Source: Escherichia phage LF82-23. Taken from it: DNA of 42,378 nucleotides. Under the pieces are notes generated by a model. It worked only from the letters and a program-made list of their open reading frames with translations, had not been told where the DNA came from and made no database searches. The first letter of the stretch is position 1. The number at the start of each line of letters is the position of its first letter. Position numbers and translations under genes: made by a program. The stretch is taken from sequence record PV660458; one strand, 5' to 3'. Below are positions 1 to 25,645 of the stretch, in pieces.

Positions 1-306
1 ATGGCATCCGTGAACAAGCAGCTCGATGGGCTGCACCGGATGCTGGTGGAGTATCTGTCCGACCGCTTGGCCGACGCTCGTAGGAAAGATGAACATGGTA
101 ATATCATCGAACCTATGGCGGCGGCTGAGCTGTCCGTACTTCGCCAGTTCCTGAAAGATAACGGTATTCAGGCTGATAAAGACCACGCCGACGATTTACT
201 CGCGCTGCAAGAGCAGCTTAACAACGAGAAAACGGAAGCAGGTCGTAAAGATATCATGTCTGCTGCCATCAACTCAATCGCAGAAGATAGCGGGATGATG
301 CACTAA
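1..306 (+). CDS. probable terminase small subunit (DNA maturase A-like)
   Basis: 101-aa ORF starting at window base 1; stop overlaps the start of the large terminase ORF (TAATG at 304-308); AAGGAG at 42367-42372 at the window end would be its RBS if the sequence is circular. Assignment by position and size only. Confidence 0.5.
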   Translation: MASVNKQLDGLHRMLVEYLSDRLADARRKDEHGNIIEPMAAAELSVLRQFLKDNGIQADKDHADDLLALQEQLNNEKTEAGRKDIMSAAINSIAEDSGMMH

Positions 307-2066
307 TGGATTTACAACGCCGCATGGTGATGGCAGGAATCGTTCGCGCCCACTACGAGAACAACTTCCCGCTGTTCCTGCATGACTACTTCGCATGGCT
401 GGGCTTTGACCTCACTGAAATGCAGCTCGACATTGGCCGCTACATGGCCGACCGGACGCTCAAGAACAAGTGCGTCATGGCTCAGCGCGGTGAGGCAAAG
501 TCCACCATCGGTATTGCTCGCGCCCTGTACGAGTTCGTTCAGATGCCGAACGCCACTGTGTTGTTGGTATCTGGTTCGGACGACTATGCGGGTACGCTGT
601 CGCACGCCATCGTGTCTGCCATTATGCAATGGGAGCGTCTGGAATGGCTGCGCCCTGAGACTCGCGCTGGCGCACGTACGTCCTATACGGACGGCTTCGA
701 CGTGCATCACGCATTCCGTATCCCTGACAAACAGCCCTCTGTAAAAGCGGTCGGTATCTTCGGCCAGTTGCAGGGGAACCACGTATCGCTGTTGATTGCC
801 GATGACGTGGAGACTACCAGTAACGGTAGCTCTCCTGCCAACCGCGCCCGTATCAACACCCTGACCAAAGAGTTTGCGGCTATCGCCAACGATGGTGCAG
901 AGATTCTGTACCTCGGCACACCGCAGACGCAGGACTCCATCTACAACACGCTCCCGCAGCGTGGCTTCGACGTTCGCATCTGGCCCGGTCGTTTCCCAAC
1001 GGTTGAGGAAGAAGAACGCTACGGCGGCTGTCTGGCCCCGTGGATTAAGCAGAAGATGGAGGGCCACCCGGAACTTCGCACAGGCTACGGTATCCTTGGG
1101 AACCGTGGTGCGCAGACCGACCCGCAACGCTACTCCGAAGAAAAGCAGTTGCAGAACGAGCGAGACTACCAGCAGGCAGGCTTCCAGTTGCAGTTCATGC
1201 TGGATACGTCGCTGTCGGATGCGCTCAAACAAACGTTACATCTCAAAGACTTAATCTTCTTCCACGGCTCAACGCAGTCTGCGCCGGAGGTTCTGCATTG
1301 GTCGAACCACCCGCGCCATGCCGCCGAGCTGCCACTGGATTTCCCACTGGCTCGCGCTCAGCTATTCTTGGCTGCTGATTTCTCGGACACTTATGTACCA
1401 TTCGAAAATACCTCGGCGTTTCTTGACCCTGCTGGTGGTGGGTCGGACGAATCAGTTATCATCGCCACCGCTTCTGTCGGCCCGTTTATCCACGTCATTG
1501 GTATGCACGTCTACCACGGCGGCCAGACGGAGGAAAACATCAAGGCGGCGGTAGAGTGGCTCGCTGAAACCGGGGTCAAACGGCTGGTCATTGAGGATAA
1601 CATGGGCCACGGCACCGTGACCAACATGTACCGAGGTGAGATTAAGCGCCAGAGCTTGACCATTGGCTGTGAGGGCGTGTACTCGTCTGGCCAGAAAGAG
1701 GTGCGTATCATCAACCGCCTTGGCCCAATCATGCAGCGCCACCGTGTCGTCGTGCATTGGTGCGTTGTTGAAGAAGACCTGCGGCTGTGTCGCGGGATGA
1801 ACAACGGTGGTCGAGAGTTCAGCCTGTTCTGGCAGCTCCAGAACCTGACACAAGACCGTCAATCCATCCCACACGATGACCGTATCGAAACCCTATCTGC
1901 TGCCGTGTACCTGCACGCTGAGGTGCTACAGCAGGACGAACATGAAGAAGCTGCCAAGCGCGAGACGGCTGCCGCACGAGAGTTCCTTGCCAACCCAATG
2001 GGTTACGATGACTCGAAGTGGCGTAGCCATAAGCCTGTGCGTGGCGTGCGACGGAGACTACGTTAA
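306..2066 (+). CDS. terminase large subunit (DNA maturase B)
   Basis: 586-aa ORF, translationally coupled to the upstream small ORF; size and position typical of T7-group large terminase; N-terminal region resembles T7 gp19-family proteins as I recall them (not searched). Confidence 0.8.
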   Translation: MDLQRRMVMAGIVRAHYENNFPLFLHDYFAWLGFDLTEMQLDIGRYMADRTLKNKCVMAQRGEAKSTIGIARALYEFVQMPNATVLLVSGSDDYAGTLSHAIVSAIMQWERLEWLRPETRAGARTSYTDGFDVHHAFRIPDKQPSVKAVGIFGQLQGNHVSLLIADDVETTSNGSSPANRARINTLTKEFAAIANDGAEILYLGTPQTQDSIYNTLPQRGFDVRIWPGRFPTVEEEERYGGCLAPWIKQKMEGHPELRTGYGILGNRGAQTDPQRYSEEKQLQNERDYQQAGFQLQFMLDTSLSDALKQTLHLKDLIFFHGSTQSAPEVLHWSNHPRHAAELPLDFPLARAQLFLAADFSDTYVPFENTSAFLDPAGGGSDESVIIATASVGPFIHVIGMHVYHGGQTEENIKAAVEWLAETGVKRLVIEDNMGHGTVTNMYRGEIKRQSLTIGCEGVYSSGQKEVRIINRLGPIMQRHRVVVHWCVVEEDLRLCRGMNNGGREFSLFWQLQNLTQDRQSIPHDDRIETLSAAVYLHAEVLQQDEHEEAAKRETAAAREFLANPMGYDDSKWRSHKPVRGVRRRLR

Positions 2067-3439: not shown

Positions 3440-3791
3440 CATCCACTCGCGTATGGGTGCAGTGGAGGCTCGTATGCAATCCGTAGAACTTCGACTCGAC
3501 AAGCACGAGGTACAAATCGCGACCCTCGAAAAGGGTGATGCTGCAATGCTGGCCAAGTTAGCGGAGAACGATACCCGCTGGCAGACGGTTCAACAGCAGC
3601 TCCTTGTGGTTGAGCAAATTCAGGACATTCAGAAGACTATGAGCCACATCGGTAAGTTGTTCACGGCGGCGGCTCACGCTGTCAAATGGTGTCTCTTAAC
3701 TGCATCCCTGTGTAGCGGTATCTACTTAGCAATCAAGGCTGGTGACTTAAGCTCACTGCAAGCCTTCATCACTACACTACTGGGGATGTAA
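3408..3791 (+). CDS. membrane protein, holin candidate
   Basis: 127-aa ORF; predicted coiled-coil N-terminal region then hydrophobic C-terminal segment (AAAHAVKWCLLTASLCSGIYLAI); stop overlaps endolysin start (TAATG). Endolysin lacks a signal/SAR sequence, so a holin is expected here. Confidence 0.4.
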   Translation: MTEAKKEPTPNIHSRMGAVEARMQSVELRLDKHEVQIATLEKGDAAMLAKLAENDTRWQTVQQQLLVVEQIQDIQKTMSHIGKLFTAAAHAVKWCLLTASLCSGIYLAIKAGDLSSLQAFITTLLGM

Positions 3792-4327
3792 TGACTAACT
3801 TTGAAATCTGTATGCGGTTCACCGGGCTGGCAGAAGGTGGTTACACCAAGCTGCCCGGCGATACCGGAGGGGAAACGAATCATGGAATTAGCGACGCTCG
3901 TGATGGCAAACTGGATGGCCGAGCTTGTGGTGTCCCTACTGGGCTTGGCGGCACTATTTGTGTACCTATCAAGCAGCTCACCAAAGCACAAGCCGAAGCA
4001 ATCTATCGACGGGATTACTACACCCCCATCCGAGGTGACGAACTTCACCCTGCGATTGCATGTGCCGTGTTTGACTACGGTGTCAACTCCGGTGTCTCCC
4101 GTGCGGCGAAAGCTCTACAGCGGGTATGCGGCGTTGCACAAGACGGGATTGTTGGCCCTGCTACCGTGGCAGCAGCCAAACGTCTGGAACCTCACTCCGC
4201 AGCAGCAGCCATCTGTGACCTTCGTATTGCGTTCCTAAAGGCTTCTACAGCCCCGACAGTGGTTCGCTATAGGGATGCCTTGGTTGCTCGTGCAAAACGC
4301 TGTAGCGCTTACTGTGCGACGCTGTAG
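3791..4327 (+). CDS. endolysin, glycoside hydrolase family 108-like N-terminal domain plus C-terminal peptidoglycan-binding-like domain
   Basis: N-terminal motif FTGLAEGGYTKLPGDTGGETNHGI matches the GH108 EGGY...D.GG.T..GI signature; C-terminal region resembles PG_binding_3-type domains; last gene before the non-coding terminus. Confidence 0.8.
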   Translation: MTNFEICMRFTGLAEGGYTKLPGDTGGETNHGISDARDGKLDGRACGVPTGLGGTICVPIKQLTKAQAEAIYRRDYYTPIRGDELHPAIACAVFDYGVNSGVSRAAKALQRVCGVAQDGIVGPATVAAAKRLEPHSAAAAICDLRIAFLKASTAPTVVRYRDALVARAKRCSAYCATL

Positions 4328-4544
4328 GGGTATCCGAAAGCTGATGCAATGAACAGGCCGTGGGTGCAATACCCCGGCTTGAAAATTGACTATTTGTACG
4401 TGCCCCTCCCTCGACCCAAATGACCGCGCGTGCCCCCATAGCGTGTGCGCGGTTTAGCCTCGCGACGTGCGCGATAATTGCTCGCGTGCGCTGCGCGGCG
4501 CGTCGAAAGGATTGCCTGCGTGCGGTATAGCTCGTGCGTGTCGC

Positions 4545-4900
4545 GTTTCATCGTCTGCCGTGTGGCGTGCTGTGCGCTGTCCTGCTGGCTGTGCTGTGCG
4601 GTGCTGTCCTATGGGGACGCTCTGCGCTGGCTGGCTGGTGCTGTGGTAGCGGTGCGGTCGGTCGGGTATCTGTCTCTTTTCGTGGCGCGGCGTGGTGCTG
4701 TGTGGTGGCGGTGGTGCTGCGTGGTGCTGTCCTGTCTGCTGGTCTACTGTCTGCGCCTGCCAGCTCTGCGCGTCGTGCTCTGCTACCTGCTGTTACTGTC
4801 CTACTGCCTTCACTGTCTGCCGTCTGTCAGTCCTACGGTCTGCCATCCGTCATCCGTTCGGCGCTCGCTTGTTTCGGCTGCGCCGCGCTCGCTCTGCGTA
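4545..4900. other. A-depleted, GT- then CT-rich low-complexity non-coding block
   Basis: Roughly 5% A on the + strand by eye over about 350 nt (e.g. 4681-4740 contains no A); degenerate short repeats (GCTGTG, GGTGCTG, CTGTC); ORFs here exist only because stop codons need A. Confidence 0.7.
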
Positions 4901-5060
4901 TCTAGCGATACTATATCACTATAGACACTTTCATAATTATCTATTGATATCAGTAACTTATAACCTATCTGATAACGGTATTCTGACCAGTGTTATGATT
5001 ATCTAATCAAACTTTAATCCTAATGATTACAGTAACTTATCACTTTTCTTGAAAATAATA
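4901..5060. repeat. AT-rich block with clustered short GATA/TATC-type palindromes (candidate terminus/ori/packaging region)
   Basis: TTGATATCA, TATCTGATA, TGATTATCTAATCA, CAGTAACTTAT x2 seen directly; lies between the A-depleted block and the early promoters. Confidence 0.5.
4919..4934 (-). promoter_or_regulatory. inverted copy of conserved 16-mer ATGAAAGTGTCTATAG (candidate phage RNAP promoter element)
   Basis: Reverse complement of 4919-4934 is identical to 25618-25633; extended match about 27 nt with one mismatch. Confidence 0.35.
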
Positions 5061-5061
5061 C

Positions 5062-5091
5062 TTGCAAACTGTTTTGGTTTTGTGCTGTAAT
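5062..5091 (+). promoter_or_regulatory. sigma70-type early promoter P1
   Basis: TTGCAA (5062-5067), 18-nt spacer, TGTAAT (5086-5091) preceded by TGn extended -10. Confidence 0.6.
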
Positions 5092-5165
5092 TCATCACGT
5101 CGAAAGGCACTAGCCCAGTAGACAAGATTGAACGGTAACACTGCTCTTTAACAATCTGGAGTGTA

Positions 5166-5194
5166 TTGACAAGGCAAGCTCACTATGCTGTAAT
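5166..5194 (+). promoter_or_regulatory. sigma70-type early promoter P2
   Basis: TTGACA (5166-5171), 17-nt spacer, TGTAAT (5189-5194) with TGc extended -10. Confidence 0.7.
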
Positions 5195-5302
5195 GCTTCC
5201 ACGTCAGCCAGCAAGCTAAACAGTCATTGATAAAGACGTTAAAACACACGCAGGCAAACTGGTACGGGTTATTCATCTCAGAACGGGCGCTGAATAAAAC
5301 GG

Positions 5303-5331
5303 TTGACAGGATGAAACGAGTATGCTGTAAT
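5303..5331 (+). promoter_or_regulatory. sigma70-type early promoter P3
   Basis: TTGACA (5303-5308), 17-nt spacer, TGTAAT (5326-5331) with TGc extended -10. Confidence 0.7.
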
Positions 5332-5382
5332 ACGCTCCAGATTGACAGGGCAGCAAGCCAGTCAGTCAGAAGTAAAAAGTAG

Positions 5383-5411
5383 TTGACACGCTGAATACGA
5401 TGTGATGTAAT
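5383..5411 (+). promoter_or_regulatory. sigma70-type early promoter P4
   Basis: TTGACA (5383-5388), 17-nt spacer, TGTAAT (5406-5411) with TGa extended -10. Confidence 0.7.
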
Positions 5412-5843
5412 CAGCACCGAGTTGAAAGGTTGCAAAACAACCTGCTCTGAGTGAACGTAAACAGGCCACGTAGTGTCTCGGCCTCATGGGTATCCGGCGC
5501 AGCTAGGAACTGGTGAGGGCACCGCCGAAAGGCAATAGGGGTAGCGCCCGGTGCGATGGGAACGGAGAAGCGCGATAGACGCAGCGCAGTATCAGCACAA
5601 TCCCGAACGTCTTATAAGGCGCGGAGTGAAGCGGGTAGGTAGGCAAGCTGGTAACGGTGAGCCGGACTGCTGGAGGACTCCTGAGAGTGGATGCAGACAA
5701 TATCCACGGCGCGAAATGGGCGGGGCGATTTTTCAGGGTAGTGAATCCGACAAGCCAATCAATGCCAACGAGTGCAGACTGTACGGCGCGTCACAATGGG
5801 TTCACTATCCACCTGAAAATAGCCAACAACTGGAGAAATTAAT

Positions 5844-6233
5844 ATGTACCGTATCTATGCAAGCGCATATCGTCAGGGCAACGCTGAGTCAGTCAATCTG
5901 GCGCTTCATTGCAAGGCACTGCGAACGGTGCAGGACATGTTCGGAGTGGTTCCGGTCACACTGACAGGCAAGTTCGACAATGCGTATGAGTTAAGCATGG
6001 TCTTCCCTGTCGATGGAATCTACGAAATCCGACAGGCTGTTAAGCTGTTTTGTAAAGCCTTCGAACAGGACTGCATCATGGTAGTGACCAAAGACGACGA
6101 TGCAATCTTCATGGACTCACCGTATCCGGGTAAGCCTGCTGGCAAGCTGGTCAGCAAGACTAACGAGGAAATGGAAGCCGGGCAGCATACCGCTTGGACT
6201 TACGATGGTGAGCAATTTTGGGTAGTGGAGTAA
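5844..6233 (+). CDS. hypothetical early protein (129 aa)
   Basis: First ORF after promoter array and leader; GGAG 9 nt upstream of ATG. Confidence 0.6.
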   Translation: MYRIYASAYRQGNAESVNLALHCKALRTVQDMFGVVPVTLTGKFDNAYELSMVFPVDGIYEIRQAVKLFCKAFEQDCIMVVTKDDDAIFMDSPYPGKPAGKLVSKTNEEMEAGQHTAWTYDGEQFWVVE

Positions 6234-7007: not shown

Positions 7008-7045
7008 AGCCAGTGTCACGGCGCTGGCTTTATGGCAATTCTGCC
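7008..7045 (+). promoter_or_regulatory. conserved early intergenic unit 1: hairpin (AGCCAG/CTGGCT) + GGCA-N4-TGCC element
   Basis: Stem 7008-7013/7024-7029; GGCAATTCTGCC 7034-7045; 34 nt from GGCA to ATG of next gene. Confidence 0.5.
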
Positions 7046-7067
7046 CCAACCATTTAGGAGCTTCACC

Positions 7068-7349
7068 ATGTCTATCAAAACTGTAACTGCTTTCATCACC
7101 AAACGCGACGGCGAACTGTACGGCTTCGCTGTGTCTCTGAACGAAGGCCAGTACCTGCACCATGTCCGTGAAGACGGCGAGCCGACTGAGGCTGCTGGTA
7201 TTCTGGAAACGCTGGCTGGTATCCCGCTGCCGCATGAGTTCATCATCATGCTGGCTGAGCAGGACGAAGACGAGCTGAAAGCGCGTCACGGTAGCGGCCT
7301 GACGCTGGAAGAAATCGGCACCTTCGAAGCCGAGGTTGACGACGAGTAA
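7068..7349 (+). CDS. small acidic early protein (93 aa)
   Basis: AGGAG 9 nt upstream; ORF-track start 7032 lies inside the conserved upstream element, so the downstream ATG was chosen; acidic C-terminus (EAEVDDE). Confidence 0.6.
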   Translation: MSIKTVTAFITKRDGELYGFAVSLNEGQYLHHVREDGEPTEAAGILETLAGIPLPHEFIIMLAEQDEDELKARHGSGLTLEEIGTFEAEVDDE

Positions 7350-7360
7350 GCGTTGTCCTG

Positions 7361-7398
7361 CTGCGCCTTCAACGAGGGCGCAGCGTGGCAATAATGCC
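7361..7398 (+). promoter_or_regulatory. conserved early intergenic unit 2: hairpin (CTGCGCC/GGCGCAG) + GGCA-N4-TGCC element
   Basis: Stem 7361-7367/7377-7383; GGCAATAATGCC 7387-7398; 34 nt to ATG. Confidence 0.5.
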
Positions 7399-7420
7399 TT
7401 ACTCAATCGAGGGTTTTACT

Positions 7421-7762
7421 ATGACTATCAAACTGGTTCTGCTGTCCAACATCGCTGCCTCTGCTTTCGGTGAAGGCGTTCCGGCTGACGCTATCACCAG
7501 CGAGTGGGTTGGCTTCACTCAGGACGGTGAGAACTACCTGATTGCAGGCCGCAACCGCGACGGCGACAGCGCTGAGCAAATCGTTGCGCACTTCGACAAC
7601 GACAGCAACTTCGCAGAGTTCCGCGAGTCCGGCTTCCCGCTGGAGCTGTTTGCTCTGATGGGCGGTCACTCCTTCCTCAGCACTGAAACGCTGGGTGAGG
7701 GCGTGGTTATCAACGTGCTCAAAGAGTACGACGCGGAAGACGATATCGACTTCAACGCGTGA
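7421..7762 (+). CDS. small acidic early protein (113 aa)
   Basis: Conserved RBS context GAGGGTTTTACTATG; acidic C-terminus. Confidence 0.6.
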   Translation: MTIKLVLLSNIAASAFGEGVPADAITSEWVGFTQDGENYLIAGRNRDGDSAEQIVAHFDNDSNFAEFRESGFPLELFALMGGHSFLSTETLGEGVVINVLKEYDAEDDIDFNA

Positions 7763-7769
7763 TACCTTA

Positions 7770-7806
7770 CTGCCTCGTTGCGACGGGGCAGTGCGGCAAT
7801 CATGCC
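7770..7806 (+). promoter_or_regulatory. conserved early intergenic unit 3: hairpin (CTGCC/GGCAG) + GGCA-N4-TGCC element
   Basis: Stem 7770-7774/7787-7791; GGCAATCATGCC 7795-7806; 33 nt to ATG. Confidence 0.5.
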
Positions 7807-7827
7807 CTAACCTTTTGAGGATTCAAT

Positions 7828-8379: not shown

Positions 8380-8418
8380 CTGCCCTTGCATAGTCGAGGG
8401 CAGTAGGGCAATCATGCC
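8380..8418 (+). promoter_or_regulatory. conserved early intergenic unit 4: hairpin (CTGCCC/GGGCAG) + GGCA-N4-TGCC element
   Basis: Stem 8380-8385/8398-8403; GGCAATCATGCC 8407-8418; 34 nt to ATG. Confidence 0.5.
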
Positions 8419-8440
8419 ACAACTAACTGAGGGTTTTACC

Positions 8441-8725
8441 ATGGCTAAAGTAACTGCATACTACTCCGCTTCCCAAAAAGATATCGTTGCAATCGTGGGC
8501 GATGGCTTCGAAGAAGGCAACATGGCGCTGTGTATCTCTGGCTGCCACGCTGTACCGGAACTGAACACGGTTGAAGATGCGAAGGCGGCGCTGCCGTACC
8601 TCGAATCTGATATCAGCCGCATGGGTGACTTGGCGTTCCTGCTGAACGGCGGCACCTTGAACGAAGGCGCGGCTGAGAACATGCCTGCTCAGGGCTACGA
8701 AGCGATTGGTAGCTTCGAGGTCTAA
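8441..8725 (+). CDS. small acidic early protein (94 aa)
   Basis: Conserved RBS context TGAGGGTTTTACCATG; ORF-track start 8369 rejected as upstream extension. Confidence 0.6.
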   Translation: MAKVTAYYSASQKDIVAIVGDGFEEGNMALCISGCHAVPELNTVEDAKAALPYLESDISRMGDLAFLLNGGTLNEGAAENMPAQGYEAIGSFEV

Positions 8726-10040: not shown

Positions 10041-10325
10041 ATGGTACTGGCATCTGAATCAATCATCGAACAAGCTGGCGCAATTCGTGAGGCTGAGCAT
10101 CTGCGTGGGGTAGCCGCAACGCTCGGTCACTGTGCTGGTAACGGCGGCCTGCGTGGGCACTCGGTCGGCGGCGTATTTCCCTGCGTGATATTCTCGCGGG
10201 GCAACCCACATGAACACCTCGACTGGTGCTTCCTCGCACCGAACGGCGACGAGTTCGACGGCTTCATCAGTTACGAAGATGCGTATGCAGCCGCGCAACA
10301 ATGGCTGGAACAAAGAGAGGTGTGA
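10041..10325 (+). CDS. hypothetical early protein (94 aa)
   Basis: ORF with G-rich RBS; unknown function. Confidence 0.55.
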   Translation: MVLASESIIEQAGAIREAEHLRGVAATLGHCAGNGGLRGHSVGGVFPCVIFSRGNPHEHLDWCFLAPNGDEFDGFISYEDAYAAAQQWLEQREV

Positions 10326-10327
10326 GT

Positions 10328-10627
10328 ATGAGTAAGTGGAGTGAGGGCGTAGCCCGGTTACAGCGTTGGTTAGTGGATGCGTTCGGCACACCGCCAGCCC
10401 CGTCGCATGATGACTCGCCGTTCCAGTACGTCGAGAAGAAGACGGAGGAACTTAAGCTGGGTGATTACGTGGTAGCATACGGCGGGTACATCCAGCGCAT
10501 CGGTGCCGTTGAATATGATGGCAGCCGACTGGTCGTTACCAAACTGGGGCATGGCCCCGAACGTGAATGGCAGGCGTACGAAGCTGACGAGTTCACTGTG
10601 CGCATTATGAAAGAGGCAAACAAATGA
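10328..10627 (+). CDS. hypothetical early protein (99 aa)
   Basis: GAGAGGTG upstream of ATG 10328; ORF-track start 10226 rejected. Confidence 0.55.
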   Translation: MSKWSEGVARLQRWLVDAFGTPPAPSHDDSPFQYVEKKTEELKLGDYVVAYGGYIQRIGAVEYDGSRLVVTKLGHGPEREWQAYEADEFTVRIMKEANK

Positions 10628-11185: not shown

Positions 11186-11326
11186 AAACTCCAGCCGAAT
11201 AAACCTTTGGCTGTGCGTGATACTAAGTGGGAGGCCGAGAGTAAACTCGAAGACCTGCAACGCATAGTGCGTAATGTTATTCCGGCGTAGTCATCTACTC
11301 ATGCCTGTTATTATTTAGCAGGCATT

Positions 11327-11342
11327 ATGAAGGTGTCTATAT
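11327..11342 (+). promoter_or_regulatory. conserved motif ATGAAGGTGTCTATAT (candidate phage RNAP promoter), preceded by hairpin 11301-11325
   Basis: 15/16 identity with the 16-mer at 25618; 21 nt upstream of the first middle gene start. Confidence 0.35.
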
Positions 11343-11363
11343 TGGCCAACGTGAGGATGAAAT

Positions 11364-20127: not shown

Positions 20128-20434
20128 CGAACCGATGGTAGACCTCAAGCTCATGGTTGTTGACCACGACCATGTGAGTGGGGAGATTCGCGGTGTCATC
20201 TGCCGCTGGTGTAATGCTCAGCTCGGCAAGGTAGAGAACTCTGCCAACCGAGCGAAGCGCCAGCGCACAGTTGACGACTGGCTGGACAGCGCCATCGAGT
20301 GGCGACGTAAGCAACACACTGGTCTGATGTACCCAACGCACAAGACCGAGGCAGAGAAGAAAGCGGCGACAGCCGAGAGACGTAAGAAGGCGGCAGCCGC
20401 GAAAGCGCGAGCCTTAATCACTAAGGGGAAATGA
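20102..20434 (+). CDS. endonuclease VII-family (Holliday-junction resolvase-like) protein
   Basis: Motif CPCPLC...VVDHDHVSGEIRGVICRWCNAQLG; start chosen at ATG 20102 (GGAAG upstream); the ORF extends upstream to 20042, overlapping the exonuclease. Confidence 0.65.
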   Translation: MGCPCPLCNEPMVDLKLMVVDHDHVSGEIRGVICRWCNAQLGKVENSANRAKRQRTVDDWLDSAIEWRRKQHTGLMYPTHKTEAEKKAATAERRKKAAAAKARALITKGK

Positions 20435-23156: not shown

Positions 23157-25589
23157 GTGGATTTACTTGCAGAGCAGATTCGACTTGAAGAAGAAGCGCG
23201 AGCCAGACACCGCGAGGGCTGGCTGGATAATATCAAAGAGGCGATGGCCAGTGGCCGCGCCGGGTCGGTGCCGTTGCTCCAGCGTATGATGGTTGAGGCT
23301 TATCCTCTGGTCGAAGCTGCGATGCAAGAAACCCTGAACGAAACGACCCGTGGGTATGGTGCGCAGTACCGGACGTACATGCGTGAGATTGGCACCAAAG
23401 CGTGTGCCTCTCTCGCACTGAGCATGGCGGTGTCCGGTGCTGCGTCGGAGCAGGCGGTACTCAGCCTGCTCAAGAGCATGGGCAAGGCACTGATGGCTGA
23501 GGTGGTGTACCTCCGGGCGAAGCAGACCGGGCCACAGCAGGCGGCGTACATGGAGCGCGTTAAGCAGGATGTGAAGAAGTCTCGCTCGAAGTCAGCGAAC
23601 CACGTCTACAACAAAGCGCGTGCGTCGGCGGCGAACGTTGGGGTGGAGATTGATGTGCTGCCGCAGCGTGCGCTGATTACCATTGGCAAGCTGATGATGA
23701 AGTGCGTCGAGCCAACTGGTCTGGTGTCCACGATTCGCGTCGGCGGCAACCAGCGGCAGCGCGGTACGGCACACTTTGCACTGCATGAGGATGTGCTGGC
23801 TACGATGAACGACTGGCTGGACATGCCGCGTGCTGATGGCATGTGCTGCCCACCGCTGATTATCCCGCCGAAGCAGATTGCGCCGAACGGTCGCAGCGGT
23901 ATGTGGCATTCGGATGGGCAGGCGGCGATGTACCGGGTCATGAGTCGCATGAACCACAAAGGGTATCGTGCGTTGAACGTTGACCCGACCCCCGTTATAG
24001 AGCCGTGTATGATGCTCAGCAGCGTTCCGTACCGAGTTAACCCAATGGTACTGGAGTTCCTGCGAACGAACCGTACAGGCGTTATGGGGCTGCCTGTGCC
24101 GCCTCGTGAGCCTACACTTCCGTTTACCATCCCCGCTGGTGTGAGCTTCGCGCAGTACATCAGCAAGTTCCCACCAGAGATGCAGCAGCAGATGGACGCT
24201 GAGGCTCATGAGTACAAGGTGAAGACTCGCTTGTATTACAATGAGTTGCGTAAGTTCACATCGCAGATGCTGGCGCTGAACGGTGCAGTCAAAGAAGCAG
24301 ACAGGTACGCCCAGTATGATAGGATTTATCTCCCGACTTACGCCGATACGCGGGGCCGAATTTATTATTCTTCGACCCTTAACCCTCAGTCTATCGACGC
24401 GGTGCGAGCGCTGCTCGAACTTGCTGAACCAGTGGCTCTCGGAAGTGAGGGGCTGTTCTGGCTCAAGGTTCATGTTGCGAATTGCTTCGGCTACGACGCA
24501 ACCGACTTCGATGACCGGGCGGCGTGGACGGACAAAACACTCCCCCGACTACGTGAGGCGTGCCGTCTTCCAGAGGCATTTGATTCGTTCTGGTCAGAGG
24601 CCGATAGCCCTATCTCAGCGTGGGCTGCATCTGTTGAACTCATTCGAGCTATCGACAGCGGAAGTCCTGAGACTTATCCCTGCCGAGTGGTTACGCAATG
24701 GGATGCTACATGTTCAGGTCTCCAACACCTCAGCGCAATGCTACGAGATGAAGTTGGGGGTGCTGCTGTCAATCTTATCAATAGCGTGGGGCGAAAGGCA
24801 GACATATATCTCAAGACGGCAGCAGCGGCGATGCAGGCTCTTGAAGATAGTGAAGCGCAGTCACCGACGCAGATGGGTACGTGGCTTGTTTCAATCGGCA
24901 TTGTACGGGCGATGGCTAAGAAACCAGTGATGACGTACGTGTACGGGGCAACCCGGCACGGGATGGTGGACTACTACTGCCTGTACCTGCGTGAGAACCG
25001 GGTCAAGCTACCGGACGGCAAGAGCCTGCTGGAGTGTGCGCAGTTCATCGCAGAGTTCATGTGGAATGCAATCCCTCGCGTTGTGCCGAAGGCGGCAGAG
25101 CTGATGGCGTGGTTGCAGGCTATCGCGGTGGAGGCGGCAGCCAACGGCGAGTACGTGGAAATCATTGCACCGTCAGGGTTGCGGGTGGTTAACCTGTACC
25201 AAGCTAGCAAGGAGACGATGCTCAACAACATCAACCTCATGGGTATCCACAGCATTAAGCTGCGCGAGTATCTGGACAAGCCGGACGGCAGGAAGTGTGC
25301 CGCTGCGATTGCTCCGAATTTCGTACACGCCATGGATGCCAGCCACATGATGAAGGTGCTGTGGGAGATGTGGAATAACGGGGTGTACATGGTATCCATC
25401 CACGATTCGTTCGGGGTGGCGGCTGCACATGCCGGGCTACTTCACAAGGTCATTCGTGAAAAGTTCGTGCAGATGTACGAGCAACATGACCCAATTCAAC
25501 AACTTGCTGTACGATACAATGCTGTTGCACCTGAACGTGGCAATCTGGATATCCAGCTTGTGAAACAATCAAGCAAGTTTTTCTGCTAA
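23157..25589 (+). CDS. single-subunit DNA-directed RNA polymerase (T7-like)
   Basis: [25 protein letters not shown] and VSIHDSFG match T7 RNAP catalytic segments ([20 protein letters not shown], HDSFG); GTG start with AAGGAG 5 nt upstream. Confidence 0.9.
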   Translation: [810 protein letters not shown]

Positions 25590-25593
25590 TAAA

Positions 25594-25645
25594 TAGTGAT
25601 ATGTATCATTGACTTAAATGAAAGTGTCTATAGTGATATGTATCA
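25594..25645 (+). promoter_or_regulatory. repeat cluster downstream of RNAP gene: TAGTGATATGTATCA x2 flanking conserved 16-mer ATGAAAGTGTCTATAG (candidate phage promoter / origin)
   Basis: Direct repeats at 25594-25608 and 25631-25645; 16-mer at 25618-25633; location corresponds to the promoter/origin region after gene 1 in T7. Confidence 0.4.

Follow-up and report, generated by a model that had tools for sequence, protein, structure and literature searches.

The A1, A2 and A3 promoters of phage T7, whose starts the T7 record annotates at 498, 626 and 750, are tandem host promoters directed rightward from near the left genome end, past the terminal repeat; those of phage T3 are arranged alike. 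Is there a counterpart in Escherichia phage LF82-23 (record PV660458)? In this phage, the whole 42,378-nucleotide (nt) stretch of which we call the window and whose positions serve as our coordinates, four tandem rightward sites, P1 to P4 (table 1), occupy the corresponding place, with TTGACA-type −35 boxes and spacers of 17–18 base pairs (bp). The likeness to T7 extends to the boxA-like 17-mer GCTCTTTAACAATCTGG in the early leader, to a hairpin before the first gene, to the anti-restriction function of that gene (gene 0.3 in T7) and to a single-subunit RNA polymerase of the phage's own. The product of T3 gene 0.3 is an enzyme that cleaves S-adenosylmethionine (SAM). We consider it probable that the four sites are early promoters for the host sigma-70 holoenzyme in a Bonnellvirus, and the counterpart of T7 A1–A3. 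An original prediction, made from the sequence, had already drawn the analogy with A1/A2/A3; it gains support from the assignment of the phage to the Autographiviridae, the T7-type polymerase, the left-end position, the boxA 17-mer and a conserved hairpin of the ribonuclease III (RNase III) type.

How far does the likeness go? There are four promoters here against three in T7. All four combine a TG with the −10 hexamer TGTAAT, and so have G at −11, whereas the T7 hexamers GATACT, TAAGAT and TACGAT have A at −11 and lack the TG. The boxA lies between P1 and P2, and the T7 17-mer after the last promoter. The elaborately structured leader runs to about 430 nt, compared with about 175 nt in T7. 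Finally, the polymerase gene is found 18 kb downstream, in an order of the phiKMV type, instead of about 3 kb downstream.

The positions, boxes, 17–18-nt spacers and shared TG-n-TGTAAT of the original prediction were all exact, as read directly from the sequence. In each site the TG occupies −15/−14, directly before n-TGTAAT (TGc in P1, P2 and P3, TGa in P4). TGTAAT matches TATAAT at five of six positions, with T at the last position (−7) in all four sites, and the −35 boxes of P2–P4 match TTGACA at six of six. P1 combines its TG with an adjoining UP-element-like tract, GAAAATAATAC, at the end of a stretch with 28–30% G+C. The TG places the sites beside the extended −10 class of sigma-70 promoters; classical members of that class keep A at −11, often without a good −35 box, whereas here a consensus −35 box accompanies G at −11. 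Transcription is predicted to start at about 5097–5099 (P1), A5201 (P2), 5338–5339 (P3) and 5416–5419 (P4). Other registers of the −10 element were rejected: TAATNN would supply A at −11 at the price of 19–20 bp spacers, a misplaced TG and the loss of T at −7, and AATNNN would need a spacer of 20 bp. Just past their predicted starts, P2 and P3 have CAGCAAGC...CAGTCA in common, possibly a remnant of promoter duplication. For the orphan TTGACA at 5342, our own scan found no −10 partner at 16–19 bp.

Such sites are rare. The motif TGNTGTAAT occurs five times on the two strands of the window, four of these on the + strand within 5083–5411; shuffled windows contain 0.97 ± 0.98 copies, and none of 100 shuffles reached five. 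The fifth copy, at 20207, was rejected as a promoter, lying within coding sequence behind a poor −35 box (TTCGCG). P2, P3 and P4 match the pattern TTGACA-N14-TGNTGTAAT with no mismatch. A scan of both strands of the 42 kb that does not require A at −11 also picks out these three alone as matching the hexamers at 11 or more of the 12 positions; first-order Markov simulations yield 0.17 ± 0.43 such sites per window and never more than two, compared with the three observed within 250 bp.

Are the sites conserved? We compared the homologous region of 15 relatives with that of this phage, 16 phages in all, and classified every site. P1 retains its −35 box TTGCAA in 15 of the 16 (TTGCCA in the other) and TG-n-TGTAAT in every one, while its spacer exists in 10 different versions, all of 17–18 nt. 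The UP-element-like tract (5051–5061) abuts the −35 box of P1, and GAAAATAA is kept in 16/16. P2 is conserved in all 16 phages, P3 in 15/15 and P4 in 15/15, the last with six different spacers of 17–18 nt. In smaasur the −10 of P4 is TGAAAT (L013 1140–1170), so that −11 is still G. Lidtsur has a P2/P3 fusion in place of P3 (L015 780–830) and hence three promoters, a hybrid that implies a deletion between those two copies. Taken with the P4 spacer of RZ4, which resembles that of P1 (L014 1090–1125), this hybrid indicates that the promoter copies recombine. On this sequence evidence the sites bear the footprint of real sigma-70 promoters: two fixed hexamers that agree with the sigma-70 consensus, kept apart by a spacer whose sequence is free and whose length varies by 1 bp.

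Similar sites exist beyond the genus. TGTAAT promoters stand at equivalent places in Pantoea phage LIMEzero (genus Waewaevirus) and in two uncultivated relatives. The orthologous LIMEzero sites, TTGTCA-17-TGTAAT at 808 and TTGACG-N14-TGATGTAAT at 1405, are annotated ‘putative Pantoea specific promoter’, and downstream of them lie a homologous leader, a hairpin and a first gene of the SAM lyase type. LIMEzero differs in having only two clear TGTAAT promoters and an open reading frame inserted between promoters; another annotated ‘promoter’ (928–974) covers the boxA-like CGCTCTTTATACAATCTGG and is not a good promoter. The bonnellvirus records carry no promoter annotation, and we found no promoter analysis in the literature describing these phages.

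Is the region transcribed rightward? Three elements that would act as RNA bear on this, among them the boxA between P1 and P2. Positions 5143–5153 are the only match in the window to GYTCTTTAANA, the gamma-proteobacterial BoxA consensus (PMC5725501). Positions 5139–5155 (CACTGCTCTTTAACAAT) are identical at 17 of 17 positions to the boxA region of the Escherichia coli rrnB leader, and 5143–5159 equal the 17-mer found in T7 downstream of A3 and ahead of gene 0.3. Of the 15 relatives, 14 carry this 17-mer unchanged; J8-65 reads GTTC instead of GCTC and still fits the consensus. Here the element lies about 45 nt past the predicted start of P1, inside the transcript predicted for P1, and shares sequence with the UP-element position of P2. 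At least 120 IMG/VR contigs also contain the 17-mer; many have the size of a T7 genome, and in these the match falls about 0.8 kb from one end. Among the other contigs listed, 75 of 120 have a strong sigma-70-like promoter no more than 700 nt upstream of it or 400 nt downstream, and nearly all the sites listed are upstream. BoxA RNA recruits NusB/NusE and the Nus complex and shields the polymerase from Rho (PMC5725501); by its sequence the candidate boxA should bind NusB/NusE and confer Rho resistance. We found no description of the T7 boxA-like 17-mer in the literature, and its role in T7 is assigned from sequence identity alone.

The E. coli rrn operons, with tandem strong P1 and P2 promoters followed by boxA, offer a second parallel, which the 17/17 identity with rrnB reinforces, and ACAATCTG, past the boxA, resembles the start of boxC. 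Unlike rrn, the phage has no boxB hairpin directly upstream of boxA, lacks the 12 nt between boxA and boxC, and places just the first of four promoters upstream of boxA. A second boxA candidate, TGCTCTGAGTGAAC (5443–5456), is four positions off the BoxA consensus and is not claimed. It directly follows the hairpin at 5427–5443, as a box follows a hairpin in rrn.

Between P4 and the start codon of the SAM lyase gene are 430 nt of non-coding sequence, of which about 320 nt (5412–5729), with a first hairpin at 5427–5443, form the structured leader. This leader is nearly invariant across the 16 bonnellviruses and has homologues in LIMEzero-like phages; some phages carry insertions of hairpin size within it. 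The RNAalifold consensus contains 100 pairs, with 97.2% of cells paired. Compensatory changes affect 14 of the 100 pairs, compared with 4.6 ± 1.6 in shuffled alignments (0/500 shuffles reached the observed value) and 1–4 in slid controls, and the single-sequence fold has z = −2.6. A coding role was rejected, no reading frame being conserved among eight phages, and an Rfam search of the region gave no match even at E = 10. The long, irregular hairpin that follows has a lower stem of 8 bp, separated by an internal loop from a stem of 11 bp that ends in a variable tip. Seven phages from two genera share its fold, with 25 pairs, none broken and three with compensatory double changes. In shape, and in lying directly ahead of the first gene, it recalls R0.3 of T7 and T3, which makes it a candidate site for RNase III. 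The boxA, the covarying leader and the covarying hairpin, all on the + strand and all expected to act at the level of RNA, give independent evidence of rightward transcription from an upstream promoter.

What would such transcripts encode? The first gene past the non-coding region is that of the SAM lyase, with a ribosome-binding site (GGAG) at 5832–5835; its orthologues are annotated as anti-restriction SAMase in the records of relatives. The array, on the + strand, points at this gene and is co-oriented with all the genes, the + strand carrying all the long open reading frames. Rightward transcription into the early genes, as originally proposed, fits this layout.

Several observations weigh against reading the sites as sigma-70 promoters. 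One concerns the lone −10 mismatch, which sits at −11: G was found there in 63 of 63 copies across the 16 phages, and A in none. Structural and genetic work on sigma-70 has established that the −11 adenine flips into a pocket of sigma and there starts the melting of the DNA, and that few if any promoter bases are more conserved. We also collected sigma-70-like sites near the same boxA 17-mer in the 120 other viral contigs, among the matches listed; of the 99 comparable promoter-like sites, 93 have A at −11 and two have TGTAAT. P1 agrees with the consensus at only 9 of 12 positions, its −35 box at four of six, and the perfect boxA would be present in P1 transcripts alone. A consensus-based sigma-70 scan of the window misses all four sites, since its rule for the −10 hexamer calls for A at the second position, where they carry G. 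The whole region is highly conserved, so that the hexamers of P2 and P3 are not singled out, and their conservation is less informative because their surroundings are conserved too. Lastly, our literature search found no start site, footprint or reporter data for this phage or its relatives. The term near-consensus, used in the original prediction, conceals that the −10 mismatch falls at −11.

Can a promoter with G at −11 work? A weak −10 can be compensated, on the ‘mix and match’ principle, by a consensus −35 box, an optimal spacer, a TG extension and A/T-rich upstream DNA. TGTAAT is the predicted −10 element of 13 promoters within fragments selected with the E. coli RpoD holoenzyme by systematic evolution of ligands by exponential enrichment (SELEX), among them the bdcA promoter, TTGACA-17-TGTAAT (PMC3946193). 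In the present sites a single G-to-A change at −11 would yield the perfect extended consensus. Perfect consensus promoters bind polymerase too tightly and escape slowly, and this over-tight binding is a plausible reason for selection against A at −11. The strength of the array promoters is something that we infer and do not offer as a result, because the −10 mismatch falls on −11, the base most critical to melting. An invariant G in otherwise ideal promoters provides a natural test case of how far the −11 adenine can be made good by the TG, the −35 box and contacts upstream.

Might the sites then bind the host polymerase and yet be poor or conditional promoters? One or two alone might fire well, or firing might depend on supercoiling or on a partly entered state of the DNA; on this view selection would have kept the G to tune the promoters, for instance by avoiding over-tight binding and slow escape or by easing later shut-off. 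The 63/63 copies with G, each one G-to-A step from the perfect extended consensus, the rarity of TGTAAT among analogous phage promoters (2/99) and the rejection of the sites by a consensus scan are what this would lead one to expect. We nevertheless think it unlikely: the −35 box, spacer, TG and A/T-rich upstream DNA are the known compensators of a weak −10, the window has no other strong promoter to drive the early genes, and the six −10 positions are equally invariant, so conservation does not single out the G. A different holoenzyme, for example that of sigma-S (RpoS), recognizes nearly identical −35 and −10 elements and prefers C at −13, which P1–P3 possess (TGcTGTAAT). P4, however, has A at −13, the combination of TTGACA, 17 bp and TG is an architecture of the housekeeping type, early phage promoters must function in growing cells dominated by sigma-70, and the sequence holds nothing against sigma-70; main use by sigma-S strikes us as very improbable.

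Just as little credence is due to the idea that the repeats bind some other protein, as replication-origin iterons, packaging or end-processing signals, or operators. Their location, at a non-coding genome end with repeats, an A/T-rich block and a leftward phage-promoter-like element, would suit it, but two fixed hexamers separated by exactly 17–18 bp of free sequence are a signature of sigma-70 and not of iterons, both halves equal the sigma-70 consensus, and experiment has shown the orthologous region of T7 to be an array of promoters, according to the T7 annotation. That consensus matches by themselves are no proof of function is the one argument for chance similarity without function, and nothing further favours it; the shuffles, the simulations (three sites within 250 bp where 0.17 are expected) and the retention of the elements across two genera effectively refute it. 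There is, in addition, a broader reading that we advance only tentatively and think rather doubtful, in which the array is the front of a larger, undescribed early-leader module common to Bonnellvirus and LIMEzero-like phages. Its parts would be host promoters of a non-canonical type, their invariant G at −11 offset by TG, the −35 box and upstream DNA, the rrn-type boxA and a covarying RNA of about 320–400 nt without an Rfam match. Once cleaved at the hairpin, this RNA could persist as a free non-coding RNA with its own function, for example as a decoy for a host factor or a defence system; alternatively it could act in cis, modifying the host polymerase for its 18-kb passage to the gene of the phage polymerase.

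If the four sites are sigma-70 early promoters, as we believe, how might they operate? What is observed is the sequence elements, how rare and how conserved they are, the RNA structures that covary and the genes present; every step that follows is proposed. The course would open with entry of the left genome end into the cell, and E. coli RNA polymerase would bind the array via the −35 boxes, the 17–18 bp spacers, the TG and the A/T-rich upstream DNA. Transcription would begin about 7 nt past each TGTAAT and run rightward. Complexes from P1 would be modified through boxA by NusB/NusE and other Nus factors, giving a polymerase resistant to Rho. All transcripts would share the structured leader of about 320 nt, ending in the RNase III-type hairpin, and would be trimmed there; the resulting mRNA would encode the anti-restriction SAM lyase and other early genes. 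The array probably also supplies the first phage polymerase, because the window has no other strong sigma-70 site and the polymerase gene lies 18 kb downstream. As in T7, array promoters may help to pull the DNA into the cell.

Table 1. Features of the control region and landmark genes in the window (phage LF82-23).
Feature	Position	Strand	Elements or basis
T7-type large terminase	306–2066	+	Pfam
Endolysin (last late gene)	3791–4327	+	Pfam
Inferred left end and G+C-rich tract with terminal-repeat equivalent	4411–4900	+	J8-65 alignment; composition
Leftward phage-RNA-polymerase promoter-like element (ATGAAAGTGTCTATAGTG)	4917–4934	−	about 130 bp upstream of P1
A+T-rich upstream region, 28–30% G+C	4935–5061	+	composition; repeat search
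P1 (predicted promoter)	5062–5091	+	−35 TTGCAA 5062–5067; 18-nt spacer; TG 5083–5084; −10 TGTAAT 5086–5091
rrn-type boxA (GCTCTTTAACA, 5143–5153) with flanks	5139–5159	+	consensus match; rrnB and T7 identity
P2 (predicted promoter)	5166–5194	+	−35 TTGACA 5166–5171; 17-nt spacer; TG 5186–5187; −10 TGTAAT 5189–5194
P3 (predicted promoter)	5303–5331	+	−35 TTGACA 5303–5308; 17-nt spacer; TG 5323–5324; −10 TGTAAT 5326–5331
Orphan TTGACA	5342–5347	+	conserved; between P3 and P4
P4 (predicted promoter)	5383–5411	+	−35 TTGACA 5383–5388; 17-nt spacer; TG 5403–5404; −10 TGTAAT 5406–5411
Conserved structured 5′ leader, common to predicted transcripts of all four promoters	5412–5729	+	alignment; RNAalifold
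Long irregular hairpin	5730–5819	+	conserved fold; 24 nt before SAM lyase start codon
First early gene, SAM lyase	5844–6233	+	Pfam S-AdoMet_lyase, E = 1.4e-27
Phage single-subunit RNA polymerase	23157–25589	+	Pfam RNA_pol, E = 5.5e-83; about 18 kb downstream of array
Family A DNA polymerase		+	Pfam

To which phages does this arrangement belong? A sequence search with the 2-kb region around the array matched 19 phage records, mostly classified as Autographiviridae, genus Bonnellvirus, whose type phage is J8-65. In a more sensitive search, window 4900–5850 was 98.2% identical to Escherichia phage mellemsur and 82–96% identical to other bonnellviruses, with Lidtsur an exception at 74.6%. To judge by these matches, the window is a Bonnellvirus, a J8-65-like T7-like coliphage of the Autographiviridae. 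The RNA polymerase gene stands next to the structural genes, an order of the phiKMV/LIMEzero type, and not within a short early operon as does T7 gene 1. Gene content and gene order identify the window as a linear T7-like genome of the phiKMV/LIMEzero order, assembled in circularly permuted form.

Where, then, is the physical left end? Positions 1–1500 of J8-65 align to window 4411–5876 with 79.8% identity, and the J8-65 record begins at a physical end, with a repeat_region (the 259-bp terminal repeat) annotated at 1–259. The left end is inferred to lie at about 4411, because base 1 of J8-65 aligns there. The −35 boxes of the array are then 651–972 bp from the end (roughly 650–1000 bp), past the equivalent of the terminal repeat. 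The tract 4411–4900 is almost devoid of A on the + strand, with an AT skew of −0.6 to −0.9 (down to −0.89) and 61–69% G+C, and holds GGTGCTG-like repeats. Several records call open reading frames in it (HHU8, forsur_28, ROV85_21/22), none with a Pfam match. Those called within 4450–5400 in some database records are, from their composition, probably artefacts; we rejected protein coding at 4478–4924 for want of a Pfam match and for its extreme composition. The A+T-rich region that follows contains a direct repeat (4941–4970 and 5020–5049, repeat family D11).

Between the tract and the A+T-rich region lies the leftward element. The phage-polymerase promoter-like motif ATGAAAGTGTCTAYWRTG has four copies on the + strand (11327, 25618, 25887 and 39010) and one inverted copy, this one, near the left end and aimed leftward into the A-free tract; it matches the copies at 25618 and 25887, directly past the RNA polymerase gene, with no mismatch. 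In J8-65 the left-end copy and the copies past the polymerase gene have changed together, to ATGAAAGTAACTGT... (GTAACTGT...), and this concerted change suggests a genuine leftward phage promoter. The element lies outside the sigma-70 array, yet is part of the same control region. RNA from the predicted leftward promoter would hold almost no U.

Two further features of the early region deserve mention. At 11300–11345, on the + strand, a hairpin (ATGCCTG...CAGGCAT) is followed by the phage-promoter-like motif at the end of a block of small early genes, and may mark the boundary between early and middle genes; here the motif overlaps two weak sigma-70-like matches on opposite strands. A repeated intergenic element, GCAG..GGCAATnATGCC...GAGG..ATG, is found on the + strand at 7025–7074, 7378–7427, 7786–7823, 8398–8447 and 10287–10334, directly ahead of several early-gene start codons. 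Possibly a processing or translational hairpin, it recalls the RNase III sites between the T7 early genes.

What do these findings mean for the bonnellviruses? The array is real and of an ordinary kind, the start switch expected of T7-like phages, although it is unannotated in the genus, and it leaves the current understanding of T7-like phages unchanged. The invariant G at −11 stands out as a more unusual lead, and so does the structured leader RNA, which is unclassified. For annotation, the whole genus gains four promoters, a boxA and a processing hairpin, all of them predicted, and the compact promoters could serve as engineering parts. For the phage itself, the array marks where infection begins. 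As the only place in the genome where the host polymerase is likely to load, it would control anti-restriction, host takeover and synthesis of the first phage polymerase.

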